Under the pieces are notes generated by a model. That model saw only the letters and a program-made list of their open reading frames with translations. It ran no database searches and had not been told where the DNA came from. Both the position numbers and the translations under genes were made by a program. Shown piece by piece: positions 32,171-62,820 of a stretch of 64,000 nt of DNA. The first letter of the stretch is position 1; each line of letters opens with the position of its first letter. Source of the stretch: Mobula hypostoma (Eukaryota); NCBI RefSeq assembly GCF_963921235.1, contig NC_086097.1:54872001-54936000 (forward strand), given 5' to 3'.

Positions 32171-32271
32171 CAACACATGCAAAATGCTGGAGGAACTCAG
32201 CAGGCCAGGTAGCATCTATGGAAAAGAGTAAACAGTTGACGTTTCAGGCCGAGTATGCCCTTCATCAGGAT
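32171..32271 (-). mobile_element. Short Penelope-type terminal fragment with a hammerhead-like core
   Basis: Reverse complement reads CTGATGA-AGG-GCATACTCGG-CCT-GAAAC-GTC, followed by the same GATGCT.CCTGGCCTGCTG tail as other copies. Helix I is weak. Confidence 0.7.
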
Positions 32272-36440: not shown

Positions 36441-37435
36441 TGATGAGATTAACTCTGCCACATGTCACCAACAGAGAACAATTCAACCTTTGTGTGTTTC
36501 CTTACTGTTTGGTCGAATGGTTAGTCCAATTAATCTCTTTCACACCCTGAAAGTAATGGGAAGCTGTTATCTTCATTTTGATAGTAATGTCTAGAAGCCA
36601 ATGCATTGCTACTTCTCTTCCTTCTGCTACCTCCAATGCCAGATGCACCTCTCAAATGCATTGACTGGTCCCTTCACTTCTCGTTCAGATCAGTGAATTA
36701 AGTATATGGGAAATAACACAAACGAGGCCATGATTGTACTGCATGGTAGGACGTGCTCGAGGGGCTGAGTGGTCCATGCTTGCTCCTGTGTTGGGGTCCA
36801 CTACAAATCCAATGAAGCTACCACCCACTTCATTAACATCTGCACAAAGGGAAAGCTTTTCTTGTGTTTAAAATGAGTTGTAATTTTGAAGAAGCTGGCT
36901 TATTTCTGGCCCTTACATTTAGCTGTGCTTCTTCTTTAAAATTCTTTTCAAAGATCCAACTTCAAAGTCGTCTACAGTAACTTTCTGATCAGTTCTCTTC
37001 ACTGCTGAGAACTTGCAGCTCATTCATCTCCCATTGTTCTATGATTCACTGTTGCTATGTCATTTCACCTACTGCAAGGAATGGTGGTATCTGAGTGCGA
37101 GTGACTAAAAAGAGTGATACTGAGTTCTGGCCCAGAGAAATGAGAGAGAATTCACCTACCAGAAACTCAAATATAACATAAAAGACATAAAAATTAGGAG
37201 CAAGATAGGCAATCCAGTTCTTTTAATATTGGCTTACTGTTCATCATGAGTAATTTTCTACCCCAGTGCCATTTTCTGCATTAAACCCTAACCTTTGACT
37301 CCTTTAAATATTTTGCAATCTATTTACATCTGATTTGAATGAATTCAATAACTGAGCAGTCCTCCAAGGCAGAGAATTTTCTAGATTCATCACTTCGGAG
37401 TGAAACGGTTTCTCCTCCTTCTCAGGCTTTGATTA

Positions 37436-38118
37436 GTCATAGTCATAGTTGTAGTCATACTTTATTAATCCCGGGGGAAATTGGTTTTCGTTACAGTTGC
37501 TCCATAAATAATAAATAGTAATAAAACCCTAAATAGTTAAATAGTAATATGTAAATTATGCCAGGAAATAAGTCGAGGACCAGCCTATTGGCTCAGAGAG
37601 TCTGACCCTCCAAGGGAGGAGTTGTAAAGTTTGATGGCCGCAGGCAGGAATGACTTCCTATGACGCTCTGTGTTGCATCTCGGTGGAATGAGTCTCTGGC
37701 TGAATGTACTCCTGTACCCAACCAGTACATGTAGTGGATGGGAGACATTGACCAAGATGGCATGCAACTTAGATAGCATCCTCTTTTCAGACACCACTGT
37801 GAGAGAGTACAGTTCCATCCCCACAACATCACTGGCCTTACGAATGAGTTTGTTGATTCTGTTGATGTCTGCTACCCTCAGCCTGCTGCCCCAGCACACA
37901 ACAGCAAACATGATAGCACTGGCCACCACAGACTCGTAGAACATCCTCAGCATCGTCCGGCAGATGTTAAAGGACCTCAGTCTCAGGAAATAGAGACGGC
38001 TCTGACCCTTCTTGTAGACAGCCTCAGTGTTCTTTGACCAGTCCAGTTTATTGTCAATTCGTATCCCCAGGTATTTGTAATCCTCCATCATGTCCACCCT
38101 GACCCCCTGGATGGAAAC
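37436..38118 (-). mobile_element. Relatively young Rex1/Babar-type LINE 3' fragment
   Basis: 170-aa ORF 37585-38097 (YKYLGIRIDNKLDW...KGQSRLYFLR...FYESVVASAI). (TGACTA)n-like tail at 37435-37460. Confidence 0.85.
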
Positions 38119-38383
38119 ATCGACTACTTATTTTGAGTTTATGACCCTAGTTTGAGACACCTTGAATGGGAGAAACACCATGAGCCTCCATACTGTGCCT
38201 TGTCAAAATCTCTATAATTATCAAAGAAGACAAGTTCCATCTATGCCTACTTCTACAGTGGGTTTGCAGAAAGGGAAGCTACGAGCTTAGAAAAAGGGAG
38301 TATTTCCTTCTTGGAACATGACATTCAATGTAGGTTAGAGCCTTGTGCCTCTGTGCTCCTTCCTACTAGTGAATTAGTGGAGA

Positions 38384-38435
38384 TGTTCGGCTGAGCCATT
38401 TCGTGTAGGTGTTCGGCTGAGCCATTTCGTGTAGG
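38384..38435. repeat. Exact 26-bp tandem duplication
   Basis: TGTTCGGCTGAGCCATTTCGTGTAGG occurs twice in tandem. Confidence 0.95.
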
Positions 38436-38999
38436 AAGAGCAGAAATGGAACAGGTTCATGATGTTCTCTCTTCCCAGAACAGTAACCAAGAAATCCAGC
38501 TTTGTCTAACTTTTGTTTCTTATAATACCCAATAAGGGTTAGGTCAACAATGGTGGTTGAAATTTATGCAGCACAACTACAGGGCCAGTACATGGAACGT
38601 GTGGGTTGTCTTCTGCAGAAAGATAGGACTGGCCAAGCTTGTCTTCCATGGAGTTTAAAAGACTGAGAGGAGTTTGATTCCTGAGGGATCTTGGCACGAT
38701 AGATATTTATACAAGGAGTCAGTTCCTTGTAGGAAAATGTAGAATGAAGCATCCCTGGTTGAAAGGGATCACTCATTTAAGACAGAAAAGAAGGGATTTT
38801 TTGCCCCTTAGGGGGTCATCAATGTTCTTCCTCAAAAGACTGTGAAAGAAGTCTGAATGACATTAAGGCAGACTCTTGATTAGCAGCAGTTGAAAGGTTA
38901 GCAGGAGTAGAGTTATACAGCACAGGAGCAGGCCATTCAGTTGACTGTCTCTCTACTGACAATTATGCCAATCTATTGTAATTCCGCATGCCTGCAATA

Positions 39000-41760
39000 A
39001 TTCAGAATCTGAATCAGGTTTAATGTCACTGGCATATGTATTGAGATATGTTGTTTTGCAGCAGCAGTACAATGCAGTACATAATTAAGAAGCTATAAAT
39101 TGCAATAAGAAATGTATATTAAAATTTTAATTAAGTAGTGCAGAAAGAGAGCAAAATAAAAGGAAAAAAAAGCGAGGTAGTATAACTGGGTTCATTGCCC
39201 ATTCAGAAAGTTGTGGGAAAGAGAATGGGTGTGTCTTCAGGCTCCTGTATCTCCTCCTTGATGGCAGAAATGAGAAGAGAGTGTGCCGTGAGTGATAAGG
39301 GTCCTTCATGATGGATGCCGCCTTTTTGAGGCGTTATCTTTTGAAGATGGCCTTGATGCTGGGGAAGCTAGTGGCCGTGATGAAGCTGGCTGAGCTTGTA
39401 ACTTTCTGCAGCTTTTTCTGATCCTTGCAGTTTCCCTTCCATACCAGACAGTAATGCAACTAGTTAAAATGCTCTCCGCGATGCATCTGTGAAAGTTGCT
39501 ACAGTCTCTGGTGACATACTAAGTCTCCTCAAACTCTTAATGAAATATAGCAGTTGTCGTGCCTTCTTTGTAATTCCATCAATACATTGGGCCCAGGATA
39601 GATCGGCAGAGATGTTGACACCCAGGAACTTGAAACTGCTGACTCTTTCCACTGCTGATCCCTCAAGGAGTACTGGTGTGTGTTCTCTTGAATTCCCCCC
39701 TCTGAAGTCCACAATCAATTCCATGGTCTTACTGACTTTGTATGCAAGGTAGTTGTTGGAACACCACACAACTAACCTCACTCCTCTTCACTGTCTAAAA
39801 TTCTCCCAACAATAGTTGTCATTGGCAAATTTATAGAAGCTGTTTGAGCTGTGTGTTTTTGCACAGTGATGGTTGTTATCGAGAGCAGAGTAGTGGGCTT
39901 AGCGCGCATCCTTGAAGCTTGCCCATGTTGATGGTCAGTTATTTCCGATCCGCACTGACTGTTCTCCTGATGAGGAAGTCAAGGATCCATTTACAGAGGG
40001 AGAAACGGAGGTCCAGGCTTTGGAGCTTGTTGATTAGTACTGACAGTATGATGGTGTTAAACACTGACCTGTAACCAATAAACGGCAGCCTGATGTGGGT
40101 ATTACTGCTGTCCAGGTGGTCCAAGGCCGAGTGGAGAGCCAGTGAGATTGCATCTGCTGTAGACCTGTTGCAATAGACAAAACTGTACTGAATCCAGGTC
40201 CTTGCTTAGGCAGGAATTGATTCTGGTCATCACCAACCTCTCAAATTTCTTCATCTCAGTAGATATTCACCACTGGACAATAGTCGTTGAGGCAGCTCAC
40301 CCTGTTCTGCTTGGGCCCTGTTATAATTGTTGCCCTTTTGAAACAGCTGGGAACCTCTGACTGCAGCAGTGAGAGGTTGAAGATGTGCTTGAAGACTCGG
40401 GCCAGTTGGTTGGCACAGGTTTTCAGTGCCCCACAAGCTACACCATCAGGTTCTGACACCTTGTGAGGGTTCACCCTCTTGAAAGATGTTCTGACATTGG
40501 CCTCCGAGACAGGGATCACAGGGTCAACAGATGCCGCAGGGATTCACACAGGTGTACTTGTATTCTCCCTTCCAAAGCATGCATGAAGGGCATTGAGCTC
40601 ATCTGGGAGTGAAGCATCACAGCCATTCATGATGTTAGGTTTCGCCATGGAGAAAGTAATGGCCTGTAAACCCTGCCAGAGGCTGACGTGCATCCAATTC
40701 CATCTCTAACTTCAATTGGAATTCTTAAAATAGCCCTCCCAAGGTGTTCCTGGACTTGTTGCATTGTTGTGGACCACCAGTCTTAAATGCCACTGATCTA
40801 GCATTCAGCAGACTACGTATCTTCTGGTTCATCCATGGCTTTTAGTTTGGGTATGTCTGGTATGTTTTCAAAGGCACACACTCATCCACAGAGGTGTTGA
40901 TGAAGTCAGTGACAATTGTGGCATACTCATTCAGATTCAAAGATGAATCCCTGAGTGTTGTCCAGTCCACCAACTCAGAGCAGTCCTGTCAGCACTCCTC
41001 GCCTCCCCTGACCATGCCTCCTTGGTCCTCACCATTGGTGCTGCAGTCTTTGGTCTCTGCCTGGTCACCAGGAGTAGCAGTACAGCCAGGTTATCAGATT
41101 TTCCACAGTGCAGTCGTAGGAGGCACAGTAAGTGTTCTTGATGGTGGTATAGCAGTGGTCAAGTGTGTGTTGGCACCTGTGGTTCCACAGGTGATATGTT
41201 GGTGGTTGGCTGTCTGAGACTTTTTCTGGTTGAGATGCCAGGAATGATGGGGAAAAACATCGGGGTGCGCCGTTTCGTGACCGCTGATCATGGTGATCAG
41301 CTCCTCCAGTTCCTTGGCCGGGGTGGAATGTACACCGCTACCAGGATGATGGCAGAAAACTCCCTCGGCAGATAGAATGGACACGTTCCAGGTCGTGTAA
41401 GCAGGAATGAGACAGAACTGCCAAGTTTGTGCAACACAATGAATTAATCATGAAGCATACTCTCCCTCCTCTACCTGTAAAAGCTCAGCATTTCTGTCTC
41501 TGTGGTGGATGGCAAAGTCCTTGGACTGCAGTGCTGTGTTCAAAATGGTGGGGGCGAGCCATGTTTCTAACACAGAAGTCCCTCATGTCCTTCAGGTGTT
41601 CCAATCTTGTTCTGAGGTCTCCAGAGACTGTACATTTGCAAGCAGAATAGTGCAGAGTGGGGGTTCGGGAGTTCTGCATTACAATTGTACTTGCTTTCCT
41701 CTCTTCCCTTTTCTTAAAGGGGAACTGCACTCGTAACCTGATTTTGCTGTCCGGGGTCCG
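39000..41760 (-). mobile_element. Long degenerate Rex1/Babar-type LINE (endonuclease plus RT)
   Basis: Collinear minus ORFs 41094-41384, 40256-40519 (RVNPHKVSEPDG..LKTCANQLA..SLLQSEVPSCFK), 39939-40124 and 39464-39781. Confidence 0.85.
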
Positions 41761-43562
41761 CCTATTTTAAGGATGAATAATTGCTTACTGAAGTACATAG
41801 TGCACAGTGTTGCTTACTGTGGATTTCAGCTGCAGTCATCCTAAACGGGAATATTTGATGATTCCCTTTCGAGCTGCGTGCAAAGCATTATCGCTGCCAT
41901 TTTGTAATAATATTCCTTGCTCATTCGAGTACCTGTCCAGATGCTTCTTAAATATTATTATTGTTCCTGCCGCTACCATTTCCTCTGGCAGTTCTTTCCA
42001 GAAAATAACTACTCTCTGTGTAAAGAACATTTATGGAGATATTCAACACCTCCCTTATGCAGTCTGAGGTTCCTATCTCTTCAAAAAGGCATCCATTGTA
42101 CAGGTACCCAAGAACAGCATGGGGATCTATCCCAATGACTTCTGTCTAGTAGTGATTACAATAACTGAAATGAAGTGCTTTGAGAGATTGACTATGATGG
42201 AAATTAGTTCCTGTATCTCAGAGATGATCTGGATCCACGTCAATTTGCCTATCCCCACAACAGGTCAAGAGCAGATGTGATCTCTTTGCTCGTCACTCTG
42301 CTCTGGTTCATCCAGATAACTGGAATGTAGTATTTCAAGAATAGCTACTTCTAGTCAACCATTCCATTCTTGAAACAACTGCCACAAGCATGATTACTAG
42401 AGTTTAGCAACACTATGACCACTTTGATCCACCGGGAGGAGCACAGCAGGTCAGATGACATCCATGGAGATAACATCTTCGTTTTCGTGTGCCTCCTCAG
42501 CCGATGATGGCAAGCATGCTGTACGCCTTCAGGACGGCCTCTGTTTTCAGAGAAATGTGTACTTCTACGCCATGGTCTCTCTGCTCAACAACTTTCCTCA
42601 GTGCTCTGCTATTTCCTGTAAATGCCCTGGCCTGGTTTAAATTTCCAAATGCATCACCTTGTCCAAGTTAAATTCCATCTGCCATTTTGCCCACTTTCCT
42701 GGTTGACATAATTGCACTGTAACCTTGGACAACCTTCTTCACTGTCTACTGTATCACCAATTTTGTTGTCACATGCAAACTTGGTAATCCTGCTATTTAC
42801 ACTCTCATTCAAATCATTAACACATAAGGCAGACAACAATGGACTCAGCACCAATCCCTGTGGCATGTAAATGGTCACTGACCTCCAATCTGGAAAAACA
42901 GCTCCCTCCAACCACCTTCTGCCTCTTACCACCAAGCCAGTTTTGGATCCAGTTTTGCTAACCTGCCCTGGATTCTAACCTCTGGGTCAGCCTTGCACAG
43001 GGTCTGAGATGCAGAGTGAAGATAACAATCAGCAGGCTTGAGAGACTGAAGGAGTTACTCATTCTTTTTCTTCTTCTACTGGGGCATAGGCTGCCAGCTT
43101 CCACTTTCACAACACAACTTCATACGTCTTCTAGAAGAAGATTCCTCTTGTCCCAGAGATGAGGTCTTTGGAGCTTCTGCTGGGTGTTTCTGTAGCTCTG
43201 GGTTTTATGGGATGGGGTTGCAAGCACCCTCCTTTCACAGTTGGTTTTGGGACTGTCCATGGCAGAGGTGCCTGCTCCTAATTTATGCTAGTAGGCGTGA
43301 CTGTTACACAGCTCCAGTAAGCAGTGTTATCTGAGTTAGACTGTAAGACCATAAGACTAAGGGGCAGAATTAGGACATTTACCCCATGGAGCCCTGGTCC
43401 CAACATATCAATGTGGTTATAAAGAAGGCAAGACAGCGGCTATACTTCATTAGGAGTTGAAGAGATTTGGCATGTCAACAAATACACTCAAAAACTTCTA
43501 TAGGTGTACCGTGGAGAGCATTCTGACAGGCTGCATCACTGTCTGGTATGGGGGGGGGGGTG

Positions 43563-45382
43563 CAGGGCTGGATTTAGTGGAGTCGGGGCCTTCATGGGCC
43601 CCTGCCGACACCATAAGATGCTGCTGTACCAAGCAAAAAAAAAGCAAGAACAAGAGCAAAGGTCGTACTGGTCTAAATATCAAAGCTGTGGACCAAGATA
43701 TTGGTTTAGTACAGTACGTAGGCTATAAACTTACAGACCTTGAGGGAGGACAGAAAGTAATGCAGATTCTTAGTTTGAAGGACAGCATCTAAAGCACTCA
43801 AAAATTGACCTAGGCTTAGTTGGCTTAGTAAAGTTATGAGGGAGACGAAGTATGATGTACCCAATCTTAAATCTTCATTTAGCTATTGCTGCACATACCA
43901 TAGGCCTTATTTCTCAAACAATGCCAAAGCATTTTTATCCAGGTATTTTTCTCAACCGTGTGTTCTGAGGAAGTAAAATGGAAATGAGAGACAAAAAGGC
44001 CAAGAGAGATGGCACTATGGCAAACCAGGAATCTTGACAATACTCCAACAATCTTTTTGAAAAATGAGATCTAGCACATACTAACCTATTGCTGTACTGT
44101 GTGGCTTGCAGAGTAAAGACCATTTATTACTTACTAAGTTTGTAAACAGTCAACTACTATCCTATTGCCACAAAAACAGGAACAGCACTGACACACAAGC
44201 CTAGATATTTACAAAGTCAGATGCTTGTTTTTCAAAATTAAAGCCTAGTTCTTCTGGCTTTCTTCACAGCAAGGTCCTTGATCAAATCACTAAAATCCAA
44301 TTTCCGAACAAAATCACTTTCAAGTGACGTCAGAGTAAGTTGACTCAGCCTGTCCTGTCCCATTGTGGATCTGAGCCTATGTAGTTGCCATTATCAGGCC
44401 TGCCAAGTATGTCACTGGAGCCTCAAATAGCCAGTCCCCTCTCGACCAAAAACTTCACAGCCACCAACACTCTTCTCAATACGTCGGTCCAGTAGACACA
44501 CTCTGACTAGAACTGTTTTTGCAGTTCTGTATCTATTCTTCCGCTGTCAGATGCTAGTGTAACGTAGGTCAGTATCGTTTTCCTGCGGTGTTTGCTATTT
44601 TCATGCTCTCCTATGCGCTCAGCGGCATGTTTCCAGTCGCTAAAGCCAGTTTCGAAGATGGACTGACAATTACCATCACTGAAGATGTGGCATGCAAAAC
44701 AAAACACACAGCTGGTGGAAGGGGAATACAAGAGCCATTGCCTTGATATGTACTCACCATTTACGAGCTTGCGTTTGAAGTGAAATTTGGGAAAAAAAAC
44801 GTCTGCTGTTTGTATACTCGTTCCAAAGTTTTGATATCTGCATCCTTATTCTGGCAGGACTCCGGCCCTTTCTGAGCCCAGTATGCTCGGACTGAATCAT
44901 CTAACGTTTCCTTTCCCCAGCGAGCAGGATCAGTGCTGTAAGGATCCTCAGCAGCGGTAACGTTATCATTAATGGCGACCCGACTTGGTTGTTCAGAAGC
45001 CTCTGTGGTCGGGAATCCCAAAGTCATGCTCTCTGCCTCTTCAACGTTAGCTGACTGTGGCAAGGACGGTGGTCCTGTGCTAATGCTGGTGCTAGCGCTA
45101 GCTGTTGAACAAGTCTCCATTTGTCCACCGGTCTCAGATTGTGACAAGAGCGATGGTACTGCTGCATCATCGAGAACAGGTTTAAAAAAATTCTGTCAAT
45201 TTTGATGTCTTTTTTAATGCTTCTTTCTCATGGCCCTCTTTTTCTTGTTTCTTCTTTCTTTTCTGTGCTCCACTGTCACATTTTTTTTGTCTGCCATGAT
45301 GATAGCTACCTATTTTGGGCCCCTCTGCAGCTCAGGCCCCTGGGCCACAGCCCAGCCTAGCCCTGCCTAAAGTCCGGCCCTG
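43563..45382 (-). mobile_element. Internally deleted hAT transposon (TTF-type zinc finger and hATC remnants) inserted in a Rex1-type LINE
   Basis: TIRs CAGGGCTGGATTTAG and (reverse complement) CAGGGCCGGACTTTAG. ORF 44507-44731 reads YSPSTSCVFCFAC..F...GFSDWKH..ERIGEHENSK. LRSTMGQDRLSQL..LESD at about 44320-44376. The host LINE (43390-43560) resumes at about 45400. The TSD is obscured by G-runs. Confidence 0.85.
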
Positions 45383-46387
45383 GGCGTGGGGGGTGGGGGG
45401 AGGGCTACTGCACAGGACTGAAAGAAGCTGCAGAGGGTTGTAAATCTAGTCACCTCCATCTTGGGCACTAGCCTATAAAGTACCCAGGGCACCTTTAGGG
45501 AGCGGTATCTCGGAAAGGCAGCGTCCATTATTAAGGACCTCCAGCACCCAGGGCATGCCCTTTTTTCATCAGGTAGGAGGAACAGAAGCCTGAAGGCACA
45601 AACTCAGTGATTCAGGAACAGCTTCTTCCCCTCTGCTATCTGATTCTTAAATGGACATTGAACTCTTGGATGCTCCCTCACTTTTTTTTGAATATACAAT
45701 GTTCCTGTATTTTTGCATGTTTTAAAAAATCTATTCAATATACGTATACTGTAATTGATTTATTTATTGTTATTTTTCTTCTATATTATGTATTGCATTG
45801 AAGTGCTGCTGCTAAGTTAACATATTTCACGTCACATGGCGGTGAGAATAAACCTGATTCGGAATCTGCTCCAACATTCCATCATGGCAGATCCCAGATC
45901 CTACTTAACCCCATACACCTGCCTTCTCGCCATAACCTTTGATCAGGAAACTATCAACTTCCGCCTTAAATATACACATGGACTTGGCCTCCACCGCAGT
46001 CTGTGGCAGAGTTCTGGTGCTTTTTTTGTGTGGAGTTTGCATGTTCTTCCTGCAACCAACTGGATTTTCTTGCAATACCTTGTTTTTCCTCCCACAGTCA
46101 ACAAGATAAATTAAGTAACCACTGTAAATTGCCTCATGATTGTGAGTGGTAGGAGAATTGGTAGGCCAGTTTATCTGAGAGAGGATAGGTTATACTATAA
46201 CCGTTTTAGGGAAATAAGTAGAATTAAATGAATAGGATTGTCTGAGAGGCAGCATAGATTTAGTGAGCCAAATAGCCTTCTACTTCATTTGAAGATATGC
46301 AAACATACCTCAAGTTGAATGACTTGCTTACTGGTGCACATAAAATAGAAAGCAAAACAACTTTTTATTCACCTTTTCTTTTCATAG

Positions 46388-46559
46388 GTTTACCATTGAT
46401 GTTTTCTCCGGCCAGAATATTGTTTTCCATTTTAACGTTCGCTTCAGGGAAGGTGGCAATCATCAGGCTATTGTTCGAAATAGCAAGATCAATAATGTTT
46501 GGGGTAATGAGGAAAGAGCTATACCAAATTTTCCATTCAGGAAAGGAGAACATTTTGAA
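46388..46559 (+). CDS. lgals3: Galectin-3 coding exon 5 (carbohydrate-binding core)
   Basis: CTTTTCTTTTCATAG acceptor; FTIDVFSGQNIVFHFNVRFREGGNHQAIVRNSKINNVWGNEERAIPNFPFRKGEHFE; GTAAGT donor at 46560. Contains the galectin signature H-x-N-x-R...N...W-x-x-E-x-R. 172 nt, phase 2/0. Confidence 0.97.
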
Positions 46560-47435
46560 GTAAGTAGAATATACTATGTATCTTCCTCTTCTATGGACGA
46601 TTAGTTTCTTTCCCCCCCCCCAAAAAAAAATATTGTGGCATGCTAATAGGAAAATACTTTTTAAAAACTTTTAAAATTATTTGATTTTAACTAATTAAAA
46701 ATGGTTAAAATGATTTGATGCTTTGGATATGGAAAATTCCCATTCTCACAGATCCATGTCTTCCTGAGCAACCTTGATCAGCAGTTTCCTGGGTAGAAAG
46801 CTGATGCATAATCACAGCAGGTTGCTGGCAGGATTCCTGAAGTGAGCATGAAGAAGGGTTTCTACTGACTTGGTAATGTGGCATGGGCACCAAGAAAATG
46901 GAGCGATGCAGGACGGAGGCCTTGTTTAGGGCCTAAGAATAAGCAGAAAGGCTGATGTGTTGTCCTGTGCATCCGTTTACCACCACACATTGGAAATCTG
47001 AACCCAATGGAGCTGACTGTAAATATTATGAAGTACTTAATATAACAGATTTTAGTGCCTCTGTCATCTATTTAACTGGTCAGTTGCTTTTAATACAACA
47101 TAGTTGTATTTTTGAGGCATCATACGTCTGCTTGATAGTCTTGTATTTTGCCAGTGTTTGACGCAGGTAAGAAGAAAATTCGTGCTTGGGGACATATTCA
47201 TATTGGGTCTGGGTACACAACTCCCTCAAGGTCCTCTAATACTGTTTCCCATTTCATAGCCTTCAATGATGTTGCCCTGTTATTTGAATATGATTGTGGC
47301 TAATATCTACAAAACCCTGACATTCTTTTGCTCTGTGATGGGTCCTGGTTTCTTTTCATGATTGGTTACTTTGTCCCTCTCATTTACACATGCAGATAAT
47401 GTGTCTTCAACAGACACAAATGATAGTTTCCTTCA

Positions 47436-48820
47436 TCTATATACTACTAGAACTCTCATGTTCCGTCTGTTTGTGACCTCCAGTTAGCGCAAATGGTGCA
47501 TTACAGCACTTTTTTTGGCTAAATTGAATTTAAATGCGCTAACTTACAGAATGCAGGCAAAGTTCAGGGTTATATATTCGTATAAAGTTGCTCATTCTCC
47601 ATAAATCAACAGGCTGGTTTTCACTCGAGACCCGATCGGCCATCATAGAAATCGGGACGCGACAGCCGGACACATGCATGGCCAGCCTCAGCAGCCACAC
47701 CTACTGGAGCAAAAGGGTAGGGCAGCTCTATTTCAAGGGGACACATTCTGCTAATCACCATCAGCATGTGCAGGATTGGGACAGATCTAACTGCCACCCA
47801 TCAATAAGAGATAATTAAATCTTATTGTAATGACGTACTTAGAGACACCCATAAAACCCTTTGCTGCAGTCAAAGGACAGCGGTGACTATATCACGTCCA
47901 TTTAGGAGAGCGCCAACCACATCATCAAGAATAATCAGCATCCTGGAGGCTTTGGTGTTACTGCTTCGTATCTTCTATCCAGCATTAGGGTAAAAAAAAA
48001 TGGTCAGCCTAATTATGCCGCGTGAACAAGGAAGGGGGACATTATGGTCAAGAGATGACGCCAAACGTCGTCGGGAAGCGGCAAGGAGAGGGGAGAGAAC
48101 AAGAATCGGATGAGGACAGGGCCGCACGACTCCAGGATCAAAGAGTCAGGACAAAAAAAGATGAGAGAAGAGGAGACAGGAGGAGAGGCATGCATGTCTC
48201 CAAGATCAGAGATAAGCAACAAACAGCAGAAGAGATGAAGAGACGGGGGATGAAAGGACTGCACGTCTCCAGAATAACAACAAGAGGCTCAAGGGTGGCA
48301 GATAAAACAGAAATGATGCCATCGAAAGTGTCCTTCGTTAAACAAGGAGGAGTTATATTTGCTTTGCTATGCATCGTTCTTCTTTAATAAACTGGGGTTT
48401 TCTACTTAAGTTTCCAAAGCAAAGCGATAATAATAGCATTCAGGAAAATTTAATGTTCATTCTGGTCACATCAGACTGCACTACCAAGAGGGAGGGATGG
48501 GCCTCCTGTCCCATGATCCTCTCATATCCCCTTTGCCAATCACCTGTCCAACGCTTGGCTCCATCCCTCCTCCTCCTGTCTTCTCCTATCATTTTGGATC
48601 TCCCCCTCCCCCTCCCACTTTCATATCTCTTAATAGCTCTTCCTTCAGTTAGTCCTGACAAAGGGTCTCGGCCTGAAACATCAACTGCACCTCTTCCTAG
48701 AGATGCTGCCTGGCCTGCTGCGTTCACCAGTAACTTTGATGTGTGTTGCTTGAATTTCCAGCATCTACAGAATTCCTGTTGTTTGCGAACTATGTGAACA
48801 CCTGGGTACATTAAGTAGGG
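47436..48820 (+). mobile_element. Probable non-autonomous Helitron
   Basis: Starts A|TCTATATACTACTA. Charged N-terminal remnant MPRE...AKRRREAARR/GREQESDEDRAARLQDQRVR at about 48015-48150 resembles RepHel N-termini. The 3' CTRR end is not clean. Confidence 0.5.
48502..48787 (+). mobile_element. Penelope-type element 3' fragment with a decayed hammerhead core
   Basis: Pyrimidine-rich tract, then TTAGTC-CTGACAA-AGGGTCTCGGCCT-GAAACATCAACT (48649-48686), ending CAGAATTCCTGTTGTTTGCG. Confidence 0.75.
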
Positions 48821-49485
48821 TGAAATGTCAAAGTTCTTTCCATCCTATCTGCTATAAAATACACGCAAAATGTTATTGAAATATTTTTCTAATTGATATA
48901 GGGGGCTTGTGAAGTCCTCATCCCAACCTTAATGAGCGTTACCTATGCATACTCTTCTCTCACAAAGCCACTTAGATGTTAATCCGAGAGCATGCTTGTA
49001 TTTGACGTCTGCCAGAAATACATAGAGCAGGTAAAATGTGACATGAGCAGAAATGCTAATTAGATACAACCACAAACGTTTTGACACAGCATGCTGTACC
49101 CAAAACCCTCTTAATCTCAGAGCTGAGCACATGCTGAACATAATGAAAGGCCAGTCACACTGTTATTAGATAGAGGGCTCTTCAGCCAGGTTTGTTATGT
49201 TCTACACATTTTTGTTGTGGAGTTATTTTTTGTTTTAGAAGCTGTGCAGGGGCTGGTGAAGCAAGTGATGAACTGTTTTTCTTTTGTTGACCTTGGGGCT
49301 TTTGTAACACTGACACAAGAAACTGCAGACACAGGGACAAGGATCAATAAGAAAAAGCTGCTTGAAGAATTCAGCAGGCCAGGCAGCATCTGTGGAGGCA
49401 AAGGGATAGTTGATACTTTGATCTAAGATGTTGGCTATTGCTTTGCCTCCTCAGATGCTATCTGACCTGCTGACTTCCTTCAATA

Positions 49486-49648
49486 AAGAACACACATAAA
49501 AGTTGCTGGTGAATGCAGCAGGCCAGGCAGCATCTCTAGGAAGAGGTGCAGTCGACATTTCAGGCCGAGACCCTTCGTCAGGACTAATACCAGCAACTTT
49601 TATGTGTGTGTTGCTTGAATTTCCAGCATCTGCAGAATTCCTGTTGTT
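49486..49648. mobile_element. Short Penelope-type insertion with an inverted hammerhead segment and 15-bp TSD
   Basis: TSD TGACTTCCTTCAATA at 49471-49485 and 49649-49663. Minus-strand AGTC-CTGACGA-AGGGTCTCGGCCT-GAAATGTC-GACT (49550-49585) is joined to a plus-strand 3' terminus. Confidence 0.85.
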
Positions 49649-49691
49649 TGACTTCCTTCAATAGCTTGTTTTTGCCTCTAAAAACAACACT

Positions 49692-49863
49692 TGCTGTATT
49701 GAAAAGGGATTCCTTCTTAAAGTTGTACATTTAGAGCAGGGGTCTCCAACCTTTTTTGACACATGGACCCTTGCTTAAAGGTATAGGTTCATGTGTGAAA
49801 AAAGGTTGGAGACCCCTGCTCTAAATGTACAATTTTAAGAGGGAATCCTCTTTCAATACAGCA
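49692..49863. repeat. 172-bp foldback palindrome centred on hAT-Charlie-like TIRs
   Basis: Arms 49692-49769 and 49786-49863 are 78 bp with 6 mismatches. Inner CAGGGGTCTCCAACC TIR-like motifs start at 49737 and end at 49818. Confidence 0.92.
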
Positions 49864-50081
49864 GGTCTAAGGCAAATGAACAGAGGCCACTCACTTTAGT
49901 ACAAGCTCCTGGAAGAGAGAAGAAAAAGTTCTGGGAAGATGGAGTAACACTCTAATCTCATCATTAGAGATAATAGATTAAGATGTCTGCATTCAACTGA
50001 AAAGTAGCCACTGAAGGCAGCACGAACACTAACCTCAATAGGCAGGTTCTTCAGGGACTAGCAGTCTGTTGTCTGCAGATA

Positions 50082-51705
50082 CAGTGGCATGCAAAAGTTT
50101 GGGCATCCCTGGTCAAAATTTCTGTTACTGTGAATAGCTAAGCGAGTAAAAGATGATCTGATTTCCAAAAGGCATAAAGTTAAAGATGACATTTCTTTAA
50201 TGTTTTAAGCAAGATTACTTTTTTATTTCCATCTTTTACAGTTTCAAAATAACAAAAAAGGAAAAGGGCCTGAAGCAAAAGTTTGGGCACCCTGCATGGT
50301 CAGTACTTAGTAACACCCCCTTTGGCAAGTATCACAGCTTCTAAACACTTTCTGTAGCCAGCTAAGAGTCTTTCAATTCTTGTTTGGAGGATTTTCACCC
50401 ATTCTTCCTTGCAAAAGGCTTCTAGTTCTGTGAGATTCTTGGGCCGTCTTGCATGCACTGCTCTTTTGAGGTCTATCCACAGATTCTCGATGATGTTTAG
50501 GTCGGGGGACTGTGAGGGCGATGGCAAAACCTTCAGCTTGTGCCTCTTGAGGTAGTCCATTGTGGATTTTGAGGTGTGTTTAGGATCATTATCCTGTTAT
50601 AGAAGCCATCCTCTTTTCATCTTCAGCTTTTTTTACAGATGGTGTGAAGTTTGCTTCCAGAATTTGCTGGTATTTAATTGAATTCATTCTTCCCTATACC
50701 AGTGAAATGTTTCCCGTGCCACTGGCTGCAACACAAGCCCAAAGCATGATCGATCCACCCCCGTGCTTAACAGTTGGAGAGGTGTTCTTTTCATTAAATT
50801 CTACACCCTTTTTTCTCCAAACATACCTTTGCTCATTGCAGCCAAAAAGTTCTATTTTAACTTCATCAGTCCACAGAACTTGTTTCCAAAATGCATCAGG
50901 CTTGTTTAGATGTTCCTTTGCAAACTTCTGACGCTGAAGTTTGTGGTGAGGACGCAGGAAAGGTTTTCTTCTGATGACTCTTCCAGGAAGGTCATATTTG
51001 TGCAGCTGTTGCTGCACAGTAGAACAGTGCACCACCACTCCAGAGTCTGCTAAATCTTCCTGAAGGTCTTTTGCAGTCAAATAGGGGTTTTGATTTGCCT
51101 TTCCAGCAATCCTATGAGCAGTTCGCTCAGAAAGTTTTCTTGGTCTTCCAGACCTCAACTTGACCTCCACCATTCCTGTTAACTGCCATTTCTTAATTAC
51201 ATTACGAACTGAGGAAATGGCTACCTGAAAACACTTTGCTATCTTCTTATAGCCTTCTTTTGCTTTGTGGGCATCATTTATTTTAATTTTCAGAGTGCTA
51301 GGCAGCTGCTTAGAGGAGCCCATGGCTGCTGATTGTTGGGACAAGGTTTGAGGAGTCAGGGTATTTATAAAGCTTTGAGATTTGCATCACCTGGCCTTTC
51401 CTAATGATGACTGTGAACAAAGCCATAGCCCTAACAAGCTAATTAAGGTGTGAGACCTTGGTAAAAGTTAGCTGAGAGCTCAAATCTCTTGGGGTGCTCA
51501 AACTTTTTCATGGTGCTCCTTTCCTTTTCCCCCACTCTAAAATTGTACGAAACAAAAATAATACACTAATCTTGCTTAAAATGTTGAAAAGAATGTTTCA
51601 TCTTTAACTTTATGACTTTTGGAGATCTGTTCATCTTTTACTCACTTAACTATTCGCAGTAACAGAAATTTTGACCAGGGGTGCCCAAACTTTTGCATAC
51701 CACTG
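50082..51705 (-). mobile_element. Full-length Tc1 (IR/DR type) transposon, transposase inactivated
   Basis: TA|CAGTGGCATGCAAAAGTTTGGGCA ... TGCCCAAACTTTTGCATACCACTG|TA, with long TIRs carrying inner direct repeats. Transposase 51323-50300 has GRPRKL, WTDE, QDNDPKH and SPDLNIIE. Lesions: TAG at 50694-50696, a +1 in an A-run near 50630, and TAA before QDNDPKH. Confidence 0.97.
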
Positions 51706-51859
51706 TATATAAAGGATATCACAAATGTTTTTAGTCCATTTTATTGGATAAACAGTGTCACCATGTGCTGGGCATTAAGAGGCAAACTATAGAATAGTTC
51801 CATAGAATAGAATGGTATAGAATAGAATAGAACCATTCTATTTCTATTTTACCCTACTC

Positions 51860-52195
51860 TAGCCTCTTACTTCTTAACTGCCTATCATGACCTCTGGATC
51901 CCTTCCTCCTTTCCTTTCTCCTATGGTCCACTATCTTCTCCCATCAGGTTCCTTCCTCCCCAGACCCTTACCTTTCCTATCCACCTGGCTTCACCAATCA
52001 CCTTCTAGTTTTTCTCCTCGCTCCCCCCAACCTTTCTATTCTGGCATCTTTCCCCTTCCTTTCCAATCCTGTGGAAGGGTCTTGGTCTGAAATATTGCCT
52101 ATTTATTCTTTTCCATAGATGCTGCCTAACTTGCTGAGTTCCTCAAACGTGTTGTGTGCGATGCTTTGGATTTCCAGCATCTGCAGAATTTATCG
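51860..52195 (+). mobile_element. Old Penelope-type 3' fragment
   Basis: Pyrimidine-rich tract, decayed CCTGTGGAAGGGTCTTGGTCTGAAA, and tail GATTTCCAGCATCTGCAGAAT. Confidence 0.6.
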
Positions 52196-53529
52196 TGCTT
52201 ATTGCTTGTTTTCTTAGCTGGCTGCACATTCTGACTCCTGAGAATATATTGCTTATTGATATTTTGCTGACTCTGCCCCAACTTGTTACCCAAAACTCTT
52301 GTTTTTGTGGATCTGTACTAATTCCAGGTTACGAAACTCTTTGATTATGAAGTTGACATTCTTCGTTTTAAATCCTTACATATTTTCAATTTCCTGTGCT
52401 TTTGCAGCCTTTCAAATTATTTGTAGTGCTCCAGTTTTGCCTATTTCATACATAATTTTAAATTAGTCCACTATTCTGCTTGAAGTTTCAAAGAGACTAA
52501 ACCAGAACCCTCTTCCTCAGCAGCTCTCTTCTACATCTAACACTCAAGGAGTCTGAGCTATGACTGTAAATGTACCCTTTTATGGTCAGTGTGAAATTTG
52601 ATTCTAGTTCTGTCTACTTATTTACTTCTGTTGTGGTTGGTCATGATACCTGCCTAACACTGAATAGCATCAGCTAATAGTACATCATGATCCTCTACCT
52701 GCTTTGTCCCTATACAATTTTGTGTCAATGCAGTTCATATGGATTGCTTTGTCAAAATCTTGATGTTTTTATCTCAAGCAATATATTTATTACTTCTTTG
52801 TGGGAATAACTCCACTTCCCTGGTTGCGTATTCAGTTTTACTGGATTTTTTTCCCTATCTTTTGGAAGACCTGCACTCCATAGCAATTCAATTTAAGGGT
52901 AAATTGTTACTGACTGAGAATGGGGGCTTTTGGGGGCAAAATGGAGGGCATGGTGTTTGCTTCTGGAAAGGAGTTGTACGGCATTTAGATATTTCTCTGG
53001 AGTTTTCAACATCTGTTTATCTATCTGCTATCTAGTAATTGATCTAATTTCTATTAAAAGGAAAGTATTTTAGAATAAGTGGTTCTTCTCCCTTTGCTCC
53101 ATCTTCACTGTAGTAAATATTTGAAAATTATTTGTTTCATAAAGCCTTGTCCAATTTACTGATTTTCAGGTACAGCTTAAGCATTTGCCTTTGAATTTAA
53201 TCTGAAAATTTGAATCAGCAACAGTTTATAATTTGAAATTACAATTTGTTGAGAACGTTTACTATCATCTTGAAGAAGGGGTCTCACTGATCTATTAAAA
53301 CATACAGGGAACCAAAACATACCTCACTTCTTTTTTTTTGTTTCTTCCCATTCCCTCAAAATGCCCCACAAGTATCCTTACTGTTTTGAGGCAAATTCCC
53401 AGGGTCAGACAAGGTGTTTCCTTGGACCTTGTGAGGAAGCTCGTGCAGAAATTGTATGGGCAGAGGTACTTAAAACATTCTTAGCTGTGGGTGGAGTGCT
53501 GGATGATTGGAGGACAGATAATGGGTTGT

Positions 53530-54430
53530 TCAGAATCAGGTTTAGTATCACTAGCATATGTTGTGAAATTTGTTCTTTTGCGGCAATATATTGCAATATA
53601 TAATTCAAACCTATAAATTACAATTCAGTTACTGTGTGTGTGTGTGTGTATATATATGTGTGTGTGTGTGTGTAAATTAAATAAGTTATGCAAAAAGAGA
53701 GGGAAAAACACTAAGGTAGTGTTCATTGTCCATTCGGAAATCTGATGGCGGAGGGGAAGAAGCTGTTCATGAAGCTTTGAGCATCTTCAGGCGCCTTTGC
53801 CACATCGATGGTAGCAATGGGAAGAGAGTATGTCCTGGGTGTTGGGGGTTCTTAATGATGGATGCCGCCTTTTTGAGACATCACCTTTTGAAGGTTTCTT
53901 CGATGCTGGGGAGGCTATTGTCCATGATGGAGCTGACTGAGTTTACAACTTTCTGCAGCTTATTTTGATCCTGTGAAGAGCCCACCCCCCATACTAGATG
54001 GTGATGCAACCAGATAGAATACTCTCCATGGTACATCTGTAAAACATTTGCGAGTGTCTTTGGTGACATACCAATTCTCCTCAAACTCCTAATGAAATGT
54101 AGCTGCTGTTGTGCCTCCTTTCTAATGTTGGATCCAGGCTAGATCCTCAGAGATGTTGACACCCAGGAACTTAAAACCGCTCACCCTTTCCACTTCTTAT
54201 CCCTTGATGAGGACTAATATGTGTTCCCGTGACTTCCTCTTCCTCAAATCCAAAATCAATTCCTTGGTCTTACTAACACTGAATGTAAGATTGGCAAATT
54301 TATAGACAGCATTTGAGCTGTGTCTAGCCACACAATTGTGAGTGTAGACCGAATAAAGTAGTAACGTAAGCAAGCATCCGTGAGGTGCACCAGTGTTGAT
54401 CCTCAGCAAAGAGGAGATGTTACTTTCAAT
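53530..54430 (-). mobile_element. Rex1/Babar-type LINE 3' fragment containing a (GT)n/(AT)n microsatellite
   Basis: ORFs 54197-54436 (INTGAPHGCLL..LLYSVYTHNC) and 53881-54084. Microsatellite at about 53633-53673. Confidence 0.8.
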
Positions 54431-54762
54431 CCACAAAGACTGTGGTTTGAGAAAGGCTCATGGAATAAGCTAAGAAACGATAGGCCTGTGAGCGTGAAGT
54501 CAGTAGTGGGTAAGTTATTAGAAGGTATTCTAAGGGACAGGAATAGACAGGGACTAATTAAGGACAATCAGCATGGCTTTGTGCGTGATAGATCATGCCA
54601 AACCAATTCTATACAGTTTTTCAAGGAAGTTACCCAGGAAAGTTGATGAAAGAAAGGCAGTAGATGTTGTCTACATGCCTTTGACAAGTTTCTATACGGA
54701 AGGTTGGCTGAGAACGTTAAGTTGTTGGGCATTCAGGATGAGATAGTAAATTGGATTAGACG

Positions 54763-54877
54763 CAAACAACAGGAATTCTGTCCTGACGAAGGGTCTCGGC
54801 CTGAAACGTTGACTGCGCCTCTTCCTATAGATGCTGCCTGGCCTGCTGCGTTCACCAGCAACTTTGATGTATGTTGC
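54763..54877. mobile_element. 115-bp Penelope-type insertion with a 17-bp TSD
   Basis: TSD GTAAATTGGATTAGACG at 54746-54762 and 54878-54894. An inverted terminus CAAACAACAGGAATTCTG is followed by a plus-strand hammerhead segment. Confidence 0.9.
54780..54813 (+). ncRNA. Minimal type I hammerhead ribozyme motif (Penelope-type)
   Basis: GTC-CTGACGA-AGG(GTCTCGG)CCT-GAAAC-GTT-GAC contains CUGANGA and GAAA boxes, helix II AGG/CCT, a loopless palindromic helix III (AACGTT), a GUU triplet and helix I GTC/GAC. Confidence 0.7.
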
Positions 54878-57188
54878 GTAAATTGGATTAGACGTTGGCT
54901 TTGTGGGAGAAGCCAGAGAATGGTAGTAGATAGTTGTCTATCTGACTGGAGACCCCCTAGACCTGAGTCAACGTAGTAGTAGTAGTAGTAGTCGTCTCTG
55001 ACTGGAAGGCTGTGACTAGTGGTGTGCTGCAGGGATCAGTGCTGGTTCCCTTGTTATTTGTTATTTATATCAGCAATCCAGATGATCAGCAAATTTGCAG
55101 ATGACACCAAGATTGGGGGGTATAGTGGACAGCGGAGAAGGTTAGTAGAGCTTGCAGTGGGATCTGGACCATCTGGGAAAATGGGCTGAAAAATGGCAAA
55201 TAGAACTTAATGCAGACAAGTGTGAGGTTTCGCACTTGGAAGGACAAACCAGGGTAGGACTTGCATAGTAAGAGGTGCGGTGCTGAGGTATGCGGTAGAA
55301 AATAATGATCTGGCAATACAGATCTATAATTCCTTGAAAGTGGTGTCACAGGAAGATGGGGTCTTAAAGAGAGCGCTTAGCATATGGGTCTTCATAAATT
55401 AAGTACTGAATACATGAGTTGGGATGTTATGTTAATGTTGCACAGTATAAGACATTGGTGAGGCCTAATTTGGGAGTATTGTGTACAGTTCTGGTCACCT
55501 ACCTATGGGAAAGATATTAATAAGTTTGCAGAGATTTACAAGGATGTTGCCGGGACTTAGGGCCTGAATAAGAGAGAAAGGTTGAATAGGTTAGGACTTT
55601 ATTCCATGGATTGTAGGGGTATGAGAGAAGATTTGATAGAGGCATACAAAATTATGAGGGGTATAGATAGGGTAAATGCAAACAGGCTTTCTTCACTGAG
55701 GTTAGGTGAGACTAGGACTAGAGGTGATAGGGTAAGGGTGAAAGTTGAAATGTTTAAGGGAATCTTCTTCATTCAGAGGGTGCTAAGAGTGTGGAATGAG
55801 CTGCCAGTGGAAGTGGTGGATGCGGGTTCGATTTCAACATTTACAAGAAATTTGAATAGGTACGCAGATTGGAGGGGTATGGAGGGCTGTGGTCCAGGTG
55901 CAGGTTGATGGAACTAGGCATAATAATAGTTCTGCACGGTCTAGATGGGCCAAAGGGCCTGTTTCTATGCTGTAGTGTTCAATGACTTGAGAAGGAAAAT
56001 ACTTGAACTCTTAATTGGTGTCCCTATCTACAGGGAATTTTATTTATTTTTTTTTAAAAGACTTCAGATTCTGGAAGATCATTTTCCAGAATTGACCTTA
56101 CAAAATCTTGGAGTCAACCGTGTGCTATTTTTTGCCCTTCATGTAGCAAAGATAGTGTGCTTGTGGACATATACAAGATTGATCCCTATTTTTAATTAAT
56201 GAAGAATTTGCAAAAAGTTGAACTAGATTTCTCTTTAGCAACCGTAACGAGTTAGTGCAGTAACAATTTACTGGAAGAACTCATTGTGTTGAGCAGCATC
56301 TGCGAGAGGAAAGGAATGATTGACTTTTCAGGTCAAAACCCTGCATCCGCACCAGTAGTGCAGTAACCTCAGAAGGAAGACTCCCATTTATGGTTGGTTC
56401 ATGCACCAGTGATTTCAGGGTTAAAATGATTAGGAAGAGACTTGGGAGGATTTTTCCTTTTTGTAGTATGTGGTTATTATCTGGAACTCATTGTTTCTGG
56501 GGTTGTGGAAATAATCAGTTCTGAAGATGGAAATGGATGGTCACAAGGGAATCAATTTGTGGAGAAAGAATAATAGAATGGAACCGACTGGATTGCTCCA
56601 TAAAAAGCTGGCATGGATCTTATAGCCTCCTTCTGTAATGTAACAGTTTCTGATTCTTATAGAGTCAATGTTGCATTGAAACAGGTTTTTCAGCCCACTA
56701 TATCTATGGTGACCTTTATTACCATCTATCATTTGCAGTACAAGGTCTGTACCCTTCTTTGCCTTGCCTATTCACGTATCTGTCCAAATATCTTCTTATA
56801 CTGTTTGGTTGATGCTTAATTGACTAAAAGACTAGCAAACCACTCGGTTATATTAAACTACTACATTCAAAGTTGAGATTTAATTTTCATGCAGAAAGTT
56901 TTGGCGGTGGGAGAGAATATCATCTAGGGTTTTCCTCCTAATTACAAAAGAATATCTATGCGTAGCTGGTCAAAGAGGAATTGAAACTGAAAAAGCAGCC
57001 TGACAACTAAAGTAATGAAGGTTAATGATATTACTGAAGTTGTCATTTGTAACTTTAGAACATTTATTGGCTTCCATCAGTTTACAGATTGGGACTTGGA
57101 AATTGGTGAAGCGAAAAACCTTTCCAAAGTCTTAAGAGTATTTCAAAGGAGCAGCTGGAGAATTGTGCCTGAGAAAAAGAGCTGAGTA

Positions 57189-57930
57189 CAGTAGATTCTG
57201 TTTAATTGGGACTCATTGGGACCAGTACATTTAGGCCCAATTAAGCAGCAGCCCCAATTTGCCGAAGTTTCAGGAAAATAATTAAAAAGGTATTAAAAAA
57301 GCCAAAACTACCATTTAAATGGGTGACAAATCATATATTTAAATGAAATACAGAACAAATTAGAACACAGACCAATACTACTACAGTACTATAAAATTGT
57401 GTATTAGTTCCTAATAGTTATCACCAGAGGAATTCATCCAGTGTTTCCTGCCATGTTCTTTTCATTGTAAATGAATACACTCAGCGCAGACACAGTGCAG
57501 ATAATGGACTACCTTCATACAATGCTTTCAACAATTGCATCCTCCAAATCTTATTTTTCATTTAAACATTGAAGATGATTGTTGATACCTTCAAATTCTT
57601 TGTATTTCCTAACTTGTTGAAGTAGTGACATCATTTCATTTTCATTCCCAGTTGTTTCTGGCATATCCAAGCCTCAATGCTTGAAACCACAGTAAGCAAG
57701 ACTGTTCTGAATTGTCATATTGTTTATTTCTCATCAACTAACAGTGACAAAAATGACTACTTTTTTGGACGGACGGACACACACACACAATGCTATTTAA
57801 AAACTGTTTGTTCTAAGCATGGTGTAGTGCCTAATGACCACACAAGTGTGTGCAACTGTTGCTAATTAGAAACTGTTCAGCAACAGTCTCATGTCCCAGT
57901 TAAGTAGCAGTGTCCCAAATAAACAAAGGG
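57189..57930 (-). mobile_element. Tigger/pogo-like non-autonomous relic
   Basis: Starts TA|CAGTAGATTC..TTAATTGGGAC with TGTCCCA..TAA repeats at the other end. Acidic transposase C-terminal remnant (EFEGINNHLQC...LEDAIVESI) on the minus strand. Confidence 0.55.
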
Positions 57931-58245
57931 GTGTTTAAGATAATTTAATATTCCAACAGAAAATGTTATTTGTAGCTGATAATGATGTATTTAGTATTTT
58001 CACTGATAGTTAATCCATTTCTATTATTAAATTATACCAGTCTAATAGTATATAATTTATTAAGTAGCATTTAAACCTTAAGGAAAACAATTTTTTTCAT
58101 AAAGAGTGATAGCACTTCAAAATAGTTAGCTTTGTAGTCAAAAATACTGTCTAAATGTAAATTTGTACTTCATTAGAGTAAATAGAGTTAGAACTGAATT
58201 TAATAATTTGCATGAAATAAATTAATTTATTTTTAAATCCTGCAG

Positions 58246-58395
58246 TTACTGATTCTTGGTGAACCAGAACAATACAAGGTGGCTGTGAATAAACAACATT
58301 TTCTTGAATTCAAACATCGATATAAGAGTTTGAGAGAAGTGACCAAAGTCAGCATCTACGGCGATATCACTCTTCATAAGATGTTTATGGTGTAA
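58246..58395 (+). CDS. lgals3: Galectin-3 coding exon 6 (CRD C-terminus and stop)
   Basis: ATCCTGCAG acceptor; LLILGEPEQYKVAVNKQHFLEFKHRYKSLREVTKVSIYGDITLHKMFMV-TAA. Aligns to [43 protein letters not shown]. Confidence 0.97.
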   Translation, partial: LLILGEPEQYKVAVNKQHFLEFKHRYKSLREVTKVSIYGDITLHKMFMV

Positions 58396-61320: not shown

Positions 61321-61874
61321 GGTGGGACACTGGGGCGTCATCTCATCGTCGTCTGTTTCCATCAGGGCAGGCAGGTCATCTTCTAACTCTGCCTGCCTCA
61401 ATGTCAAAGGTCGAGGTTCGTCTGCTGTGGCTGATGTGGAAAGGTTTGAAAAACAGTATGCTTGACTGCTAGCCTCGCCCATTTTTCTATCATACAGTTC
61501 TTTGTAAGCACTCAAACCATCCTGCAAATGTGCCCTAAAGCTACGTACCCTTTCAAAATTAAAGTCATACTTTTCTGCAATCATTGCAGCGAAAATCTCA
61601 GGCAGTTGCTTCACGTTCAGTTCCTGGATGACTTCACTTTCGGTCCGTTTGCTACTGCATTTGGTTTCGATTGTTATCCTTTCCTCTTCCAATTGCATCA
61701 ACTCTTCATCTATCAGTTCTTGGTCATGGGATGCCAAACCTCTTCAACATCATCTTTGCCAACTTCCACAAGCCAAACTCACTTCGTCCTTACTTTGTTC
61801 ACCACGATCGAAACGCTTAATTATGTCTAGTTTTACACTAAGTGTAACACCTTCACGAGCTCTTTTAGGCTTTT

Positions 61875-62820
61875 AGAAACATAGAAAATAGGTGCAGGAG
61901 TAGGCCATTCGGCCCTTCAAACCTGCACTGCCATTCAGTATGATCATGGCTGATCATCCAACTCAGAACCCTGTACCAGCCTTCCCTTCATACCCCCTGA
62001 TCCCTTTAGCCACAAGGGCCATATCTAACTCCCTCTTAAATATAGCCAATGAACTGGCCTCAACTGTTTCCTGTGGCAGAGAATTCCACAGATTCACCAC
62101 TCTCTGTGTGAAGAAGTTTTTCCTAATCTAGGTCCTAAAAGGCTTCCCCTTTATCCTCAAACTGTGACCCCTCGTTCTAGACTTCCCCAACATCGGGAAC
62201 AATCTTCCTGCATCTAGCCTTTCCAATTCCTTTAGGATTTTATATGTTTCAATAAGATCCCCCCTCAATCTTCTAAATTCCAAGAAGTATAAGCCTAGTC
62301 GATCCAGTCCTTCATCATATGAAAGTCCTGCCATCCCAGGAATCAATCTGGTGAACCTTCTTTGTACTCCCTCTATGGCAAGGATGTCTTTCCTCAGAAT
62401 AGGGGACCAAAACTGCACACAATACTCCAGGTGTGGTCTCACCAAGACCTTGTACAACTGCAGTAGTACCTCCCTGCTCCTGTACTCGAATCCTTTTGCT
62501 ATGAATGCCAGCATACCATTCGCCTTTTTCACCGCCTGCTGTACCTGCATGCCCACTTTCAATGACTGGTGTATAATGACACCCAGGTCTCGTTGCACCT
62601 CCCCTTTTCCTAATCAGCCACCATTCAGATAATAATCTGTTTTCCTGTTTTTGCCACCAAAGTGGATAACCTCACATTTATCCACATTAAATTGCATCTG
62701 CCATGAATTTGCCCACTCACCCAACCTATCCAAGTCACCCTACATCCTCTTAGCATCCTCCTCACAGCTAACACTGCCACCCAGATTCGTGTCATCTGCA
62801 AATTTGGAGATGCTGCATTC
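61875..62820 (-). mobile_element. Young 5'-truncated CR1 LINE, same subfamily as 10456-11757
   Basis: ORF 62128-62598 is nearly identical to the matching part of ORF 10643-11659, with the same 3' UTR and TTTCTATG tail. It splits the Tigger N-terminus. Confidence 0.95.

Follow-up and report, generated by a model that had tools for sequence, protein, structure and literature searches.

A short insert in an intron of a galectin gene carries all the letters of a hammerhead ribozyme core. An initial annotation of the locus described it as a recently retrotransposed, ribozyme-only unit of the retrozyme or SINE type. The question is whether the insert is such a mobile unit, a ribozyme that acts on the transcript of its host gene, or a by-product of the insertion of a longer element. 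The locus was analyzed within a 64,000-nt stretch of DNA (the window), and the features are collected in Table 1.

Table 1. Features of the insert, its host gene and related family copies in the window
Feature	Position	Strand	Remarks
Galectin exon before last coding intron	46388..46559	+	PF00337, E 4e-13; splice sites
Last coding galectin exon, stop codon included	58246..58395	+	PF00337, E 2e-10
Decayed host LINE reverse transcriptase (RT) region, insertion target	54440..55300	+	limits set by the tested stretch
Left target-site duplication, 17 bp	54746..54762	+	last 2-3 nt also fit the element's own 3' end
Tail-bearing direct copy, only last 18 nt of family 3' tail left	54763..54780	-	sequence identity
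Inverted 5'-truncated arm, 98 nt	54780..54877	+	from helix I edge to tail-less end
Minimal type I hammerhead motif	54780..54813	+	sequence; layout follows consensus of PMC4209133 fig. S3; predicted cut 54810/54811
Right target-site duplication	54878..54894	+	direct repeat, 17/17 identical to the left one
Copy A, contiguous family 3' end with full tail	48510..48787	+	pyrimidine-rich upstream part; hammerhead with mutated core; 5' limit approximate
Copy B, architecture as in the insert	49471..49664		arm 49489-49587; 62-nt tail-bearing piece 49589-49650; 14-15-bp duplication
Copy D, solo tail-less arm, older subfamily	32173..32270	-	both ends nearly as in the arm of the insert
Copy E, old, core dead	51980..52201	+	tail and upstream extension present

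The insert lies in the last coding intron (46560-58245) since the galectin exons on its two sides give contiguous coverage of the Pfam domain (positions 29-85 in exon 46388-46559 and 87-130 in 58246-58392). The hammerhead motif lies on the strand of the gene, which agrees with the annotated sense orientation in the last intron, and judged from strand it would also be sense within the galectin pre-mRNA, as had been proposed. The name lgals3 is putative and is based on a Pro/Gly repeat exon (27721-28140) together with one carbohydrate domain, against which the solved domains of galectin-9, -5 and -3 score about equally. The Pro/Gly/Gln/Trp repeat encoded by this N-terminal exon is long and highly regular. 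In the interval from 28140 to 46388, the opening exon of the carbohydrate domain (Pfam positions 1-28) was not found. The window also holds two young LINE RT copies (10803-11748 and 61874-62819) that are 94.6% identical over 946 nt and lie in opposite orientations on either side of the galectin gene. A Tc1/mariner element (50079-51708) has inverted terminal repeats of about 215 bp and a transposase frame at 50694-51386 on the minus strand (PF01498, E 4e-20).

The two direct repeats that bracket the insert are identical at 17 of 17 positions (54746-54762 and 54878-54894) and enclose 115 nt (54763-54877); both the exact 17-bp duplication and the 115-bp length given by the initial annotation are therefore correct. 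By a rough estimate, the chance that the 64-kb window holds any exact 17-mer repeat within 200 nt is 7e-4. The segment is a genuine insertion because, once it and one repeat are deleted, its flanks read as one RT-like host frame that is unbroken across the site. The host is a decayed LINE, presumably of the CR1 type. Its left flank matches RVT_1 weakly (E 0.034, which does not reach the curated cut-off), and its right flank is 76% identical over 74 nt to an RT copy at 10706-10779, the frame of which matches RVT_1 at 3e-14. Among the 15 joints listed of about 5,960 in the sequencing data there is no empty-site joint, and no listed contig spans the insert. The last two to three bases of the left repeat may be derived from the element, because the consensus of the flanks that leave the family in one sequencing run (X6) begins with CG and copy A likewise continues with CG. 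The net duplication may therefore be 14-15 bp.

The insert consists of two 5'-truncated pieces of one repeat family, placed head to head, because the contiguous copy A carries both pieces in one unit (48652-48785, plus strand), which comprises a hammerhead, 64 more nucleotides and a 36-nt end. The arm (54780-54877) corresponds to positions 1-98 of this unit and stops 36 nt before the family 3' end. It is 92% identical to copy A (48652-48749; 8 differences) and 93% identical to copy B (49489-49584). The other piece (54763-54780) reproduces in reverse the final 18 nt of the unit and is identical at 18 of 18 positions to 48768-48785 and to 49633-49650. It had been described as an inverted terminus; it has no inverted counterpart within the insert and is the tail of the family turned round. 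The two pieces share a single base (54780), and on the family map they are separated by a gap of 18 nt. Nor is the insert essentially a hammerhead ribozyme, as first stated, since the motif covers 34 of its 115 nt. The claim of a retrotransposed insert holds. The tail, which is 36 nt in the insert and 38 nt in copy B, is present at one end only, and there is no poly(A). The window holds five motif-bearing copies, most of them decayed. Copy B interrupts an arm of F (49345-49690), an older head-to-head copy, where it duplicated 14-15 bp, and is thus a nested insertion into a repeat of its own superfamily.

The insert probably arose by a single, two-ended, target-primed insertion of a Penelope-like element (PLE), with the hammerhead as an inert passenger at this site. 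The geometry and orientation of the two pieces and their identity with the family are observed directly, and from these we infer the order of events. The nuclease of the element would have made two staggered nicks in the old LINE. The top-strand end would have been primed at the end of the RNA tail, with two to three matching bases, and synthesis would have stopped after 18 nt. The bottom-strand end would have been primed at a second start site 36 nt upstream, where, in this one case, pairing with the template was possible for six of the first seven target bases (one of them as a wobble) but not for the terminal base. The bottom-strand cDNA would then have been extended by 98 nt, across the uncut hammerhead and as far as the helix I edge, and the two cDNAs would have been joined at the one shared base. 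The arm extends 31 nt past the predicted cut site, and the template was therefore uncut or religated.

This arrangement resembles published PLE insertions. The layout reported for PLEs in the Naiad/Penelope scheme is an inverted 5'-truncated copy beside a direct copy, with a tail of 30-40 bp at one end (PMC8557442), and the rotifer element Pen2a_Av has a 31-bp tail and a 9-10-bp target-site duplication (PMC3846280). In the Poseidon element PAc of Anolis, RT starts at two internal sites about 111-118 nt beyond the point in the hammerhead where the ORF begins, and the spacing of these sites gives the tail. Cutting and extension take place on both target strands, with uncut RNA as the main substrate (PMC11167929). 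The insert shares with the endonuclease-bearing PLEs described in these three papers (PMC3846280, PMC8557442 and PMC11167929) the head-to-head inverted 5'-truncated copy, the target-site duplication, a tail of 30-40 nt on one side, 3' ends that lie about 100-135 nt beyond the hammerhead and an uncut template. It differs from them in that its tail-bearing copy is only 18 nt long, an extreme truncation. Its duplication of 14-17 bp is also longer than the 8-10 bp of the rotifer examples, and it has short primer-template matches at both ends, whereas PAc was primed without homology in vitro (PMC11167929). Twin or dual priming of L1, as described in PMC2837659, likewise leaves two fragments in inverted orientation, separated by an internal gap and bounded by target-site duplications, and includes cases in which the first RT dropped off within the tail. 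Unlike L1, the insert has no poly(A), and its two priming sites have set places in the element. The pieces of copy B overlap, which differs from L1 twin priming on one template.

The family to which these pieces belong is abundant. Depth was taken from the contigs of four sequencing runs at a likeness of 85, and summed depth in these data is not a copy number. Summed contig depth in run X1 was 1.8 million for the insert, 2.3 million for copy B and 3.2 million for the copy A bin, and 10-22 in five unique bins. Upstream of the ribozyme in copy A (48551-48633), depth in the same run was 1.5-3.0 million at five listed sites. The upstream part belongs to the abundant repeat too because this depth is like that over the motif, and the family extends at least 100 nt 5' of the ribozyme at like depth. 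At the tail end, 78 contigs of run X6 leave the family into unlike flanks. When the upstream parts of copies A and E alone were aligned locally, the score of 27 was no better than that of shuffled sequence (shuffle maximum 28, n=200). Just 5' of copy A is a separate repeat (48300-48500) with an approximately 50-100-fold lower summed depth (17,000-39,000 in run X1), and an open frame at 48013-48387, also 5' of copy A, has no Pfam match.

The family is likely a Penelope-like element, a putative assignment made from structure because the searches found no parent RT or GIY-YIG frame. A motif scan of all six frames of the window gave no match to the telomerase-like RT and GIY-YIG nuclease expected of the parent. 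A protein search with the frame that runs through the hammerhead and the tail, against longer proteins only, returned 10 candidates, none of them at E 0.001. Family pattern scans of viral, metagenome and prokaryote collections each gave 0 loci. No description of this family in cartilaginous fish was found in the literature; a 2026 preprint sampled one such species, and its supplements may name the family. The family is also absent from the rows of fig. S3 of PMC4209133 that were compared, among which there is no cartilaginous fish.

The hammerhead itself was annotated accurately in most respects. The 5' strand of helix I occupies 54780-54782 and is followed by CUGACGA (54783-54789), GAAA (54803-54806), the ACGU palindrome (54806-54809), H17 (54810) and the 3' strand of helix I (54811-54813). 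All core boxes are placed as first reported, and the motif is letter-complete (CUGANGAH, GAAAN, palindrome, NUH and a helix I of 3 bp). Helices II and III and the short helix I are present as described, but the register of helix II is better drawn as a bulged A with GGGU/GCCU (-5.6 vs -4.2 kcal/mol for the pairing originally given), which is also closer to the published layout. The G.U that replaces the usual G10.1-C11.1 closing pair is found in copies A, B, D and E as well. No letter disqualifies the motif because, in the alignment of PMC4209133, GUU triplets and 3-bp helices I are present in published minimal hammerhead (min-HHR) families and G.U stands at 10.1-11.1 in several rows. The letters and layout thus fit the published min-HHR consensus, in keeping with the proposal of a Penelope-type minimal type I hammerhead. 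Like the min-HHRs that Cervera and de la Pena (2014) described there from metazoan PLE pLTRs, the motif has the CUGANGAH core, a bulged base before helix II, GAAA-CGUH, a loopless palindromic helix III, a 3-bp helix I and, in copy A, a U-rich upstream stretch; in both cases the motifs are mostly dispersed single copies from truncated elements. It differs in having G.U rather than G-C at 10.1-11.1 and in standing without a parent ORF in the window. The recommended covariance-model and descriptor searches gave a divided result. An Rfam scan of 54000-55600 returned no hammerhead family match (one chance miRNA match only), whereas a min-HHR descriptor matched twice in the window (54780-54813 and, in copy B, 49581 on the minus strand), against a background of 0.01 matches per shuffled window in 200 shuffles.

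An intact core that is sense to the gene raises the prospect that the intronic hammerhead works and cleaves the galectin pre-mRNA, either by itself with the help of a protein or in trans, or that the copy is a retrozyme monomer. This is highly improbable. The hammerhead in this lone copy is predicted to misfold and would have no dimer partner in the pre-mRNA. The modeled pairing probability in four sequence contexts is at most 0.003 for helix I and 0.004-0.16 for helix II (about 0.2 for both helices in copy B, for comparison), and a competing hairpin made by the junction forms over helix I and the core with a probability of 0.2-0.35. Unconstrained folding of five pieces gave z-scores of -0.35 to +0.97, and cofolding of the motif as a homodimer yielded a non-hammerhead duplex instead. 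Single min-HHRs did not cleave in vitro and dimers cleaved poorly in the experiments of PMC4209133. Abundant family transcripts could act as partners, but the gene itself contains no intact sense partner motif, since the cores of A and E, the other sense copies in the gene, are broken, and the intron holds the 92%-identical antisense arm of copy B. The insert also belongs to no tandem array, its arm spans the cut site, and its four changes from the majority of three copies, one of them at a CpG, resemble ordinary decay. The folding results are predictions, and the motif may yet be active, because it is letter-complete and the Anolis PLE motif cleaves in vitro only with its protein (PMC11167929). 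The predicted duplex between antisense copy B and the arm in the same intron is about -185 kcal/mol, and that between A and B is similar. Copy D lies on one side of the 46.4-kb exon, and A and the insert lie on the other; such a sense/antisense layout could favor editing or back-splicing.

The passenger reading also has to be set against the proposal of a ribozyme-only unit. In animals, retrozymes consist of tandem 150-450-bp units that carry canonical type I motifs (PMC7229834), and they have been argued to derive from PLE pLTRs (bioRxiv 10.64898/2026.07.22.740005). Like the non-LTR retrozymes of these two sources, the insert is non-coding and has a type I hammerhead and a long target-site duplication. 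Unlike them, it has a single minimal motif, no tandem unit, a length of 115 nt and an inverted junction. The retrozyme-type canonical motif combines a 6-bp helix I, loop contacts and a 150-450-bp unit, and here helix I is 3 bp and the insert 115 nt. No tandem array with two or more complete hammerheads was found in 48000-56000. Pol III promoters can be recognized by A and B box patterns, and no such pattern and no tRNA was found in the insert. The idea of a ribozyme-only retrozyme or SINE unit is therefore mostly not supported, since the insert is made of two truncated pieces of a longer family that extends upstream, with neither a tandem array nor a Pol III head. The insertion was also called recent, which the sequence does not show: compared with the majority of A, B and the insert, the arm has changes at 4 of 98 sites, and at 4% decay the probability of an exact 17-bp repeat pair is 0.25.

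The 5' ends of the family copies bear on a different relation to short mobile units. Nine arms were counted (two each in the insert, B and F and one each in A, D and E, with the limits of E and F set by eye). Three of these start no more than 4 nt from the helix I edge (0/+1 in the insert, -3 in B and +1 in D), and the same three end at about nt 96-98; this edge is thus shared by three of the nine, and the others extend upstream or start later. Random truncation accounts poorly for such a clustering of starts. The arm of the insert may accordingly have copied a discrete short RNA that begins at the helix I edge, by a start site or a splice acceptor, and was primed at two sites in the tail, although this is unlikely. 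Such an RNA would need no defined 3' end because Penelope RT primes internally, and a discrete short template would explain why the arms of the insert, B and D share nearly both ends. In copy A, an 80% pyrimidine tract is followed by two AG dinucleotides whose ends fall precisely at -3 and +1, as a splice acceptor at the edge would have it. What we take to be an initiator-like word overlaps the helix I edge bases of copy A. An Inr-like site is known in a pLTR (PMC3846280), and in D. virilis Penelope the end of the intron coincides with the start of helix I on its 5' side (PMC4209133). Head-to-head junctions at the helix I edge of other copies make up 4 of the 15 joints listed of about 5,960, with depth up to 404 (X1) and 362 (X5), but their sides are only 21-26 letters long and the evidence is weak.

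Several observations argue against a discrete short template. Six of the nine arms start elsewhere, and the clustering of arm starts (P 0.06 if any 5-nt cluster is allowed and 0.0005 for this one fixed interval) was tested post hoc against a uniform null over an arbitrary range. In copy A, taken as the parent context, a hairpin spans the helix I 5' edge (48625-48675; -7.6 kcal/mol) and could by itself make the RT stop or fold back. The junctions hold no letters of an upstream exon (0 extra nucleotides in the insert and 1 nt in B), and the upstream sequence is as deep as the motif. The same hairpin would hide the core. Some head-to-head joints of other copies use a matching 5-nt word, which suggests fold-back priming of cDNA. 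A cut at the GUC of the helix I 5' strand was considered as the cause of the 5' edge and rejected, since it would give ends at +3 and would lack a helix I partner. The extension of the short-RNA idea, in which mini-copies of 100-135 nt form a non-autonomous class mobilized in trans and come near the SINE-like proposal, is equally doubtful. It is similarly improbable that a short RNA from the Penelope terminal repeats of this genome, starting at the hammerhead 5' edge, has been copied in trans to give thousands of ribozyme-headed mini-elements of 100-135 nt, the insert among them, by a SINE-like route from PLEs to retrozymes.

Two-ended insertion of a truncated Penelope-like element thus remains the preferred explanation. 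The insert shows neither a new mobile unit nor a working intronic ribozyme. It is a small, clean case of a known pattern, in which both start sites of the Penelope RT were used once on uncut RNA, and the use of both sites in one event agrees with in vitro work from 2024. If the shared 5' edge is a real RNA end, it would tell how Penelope RNAs arise and what the hammerhead marks, and also how retrozyme-like units come from pLTRs.
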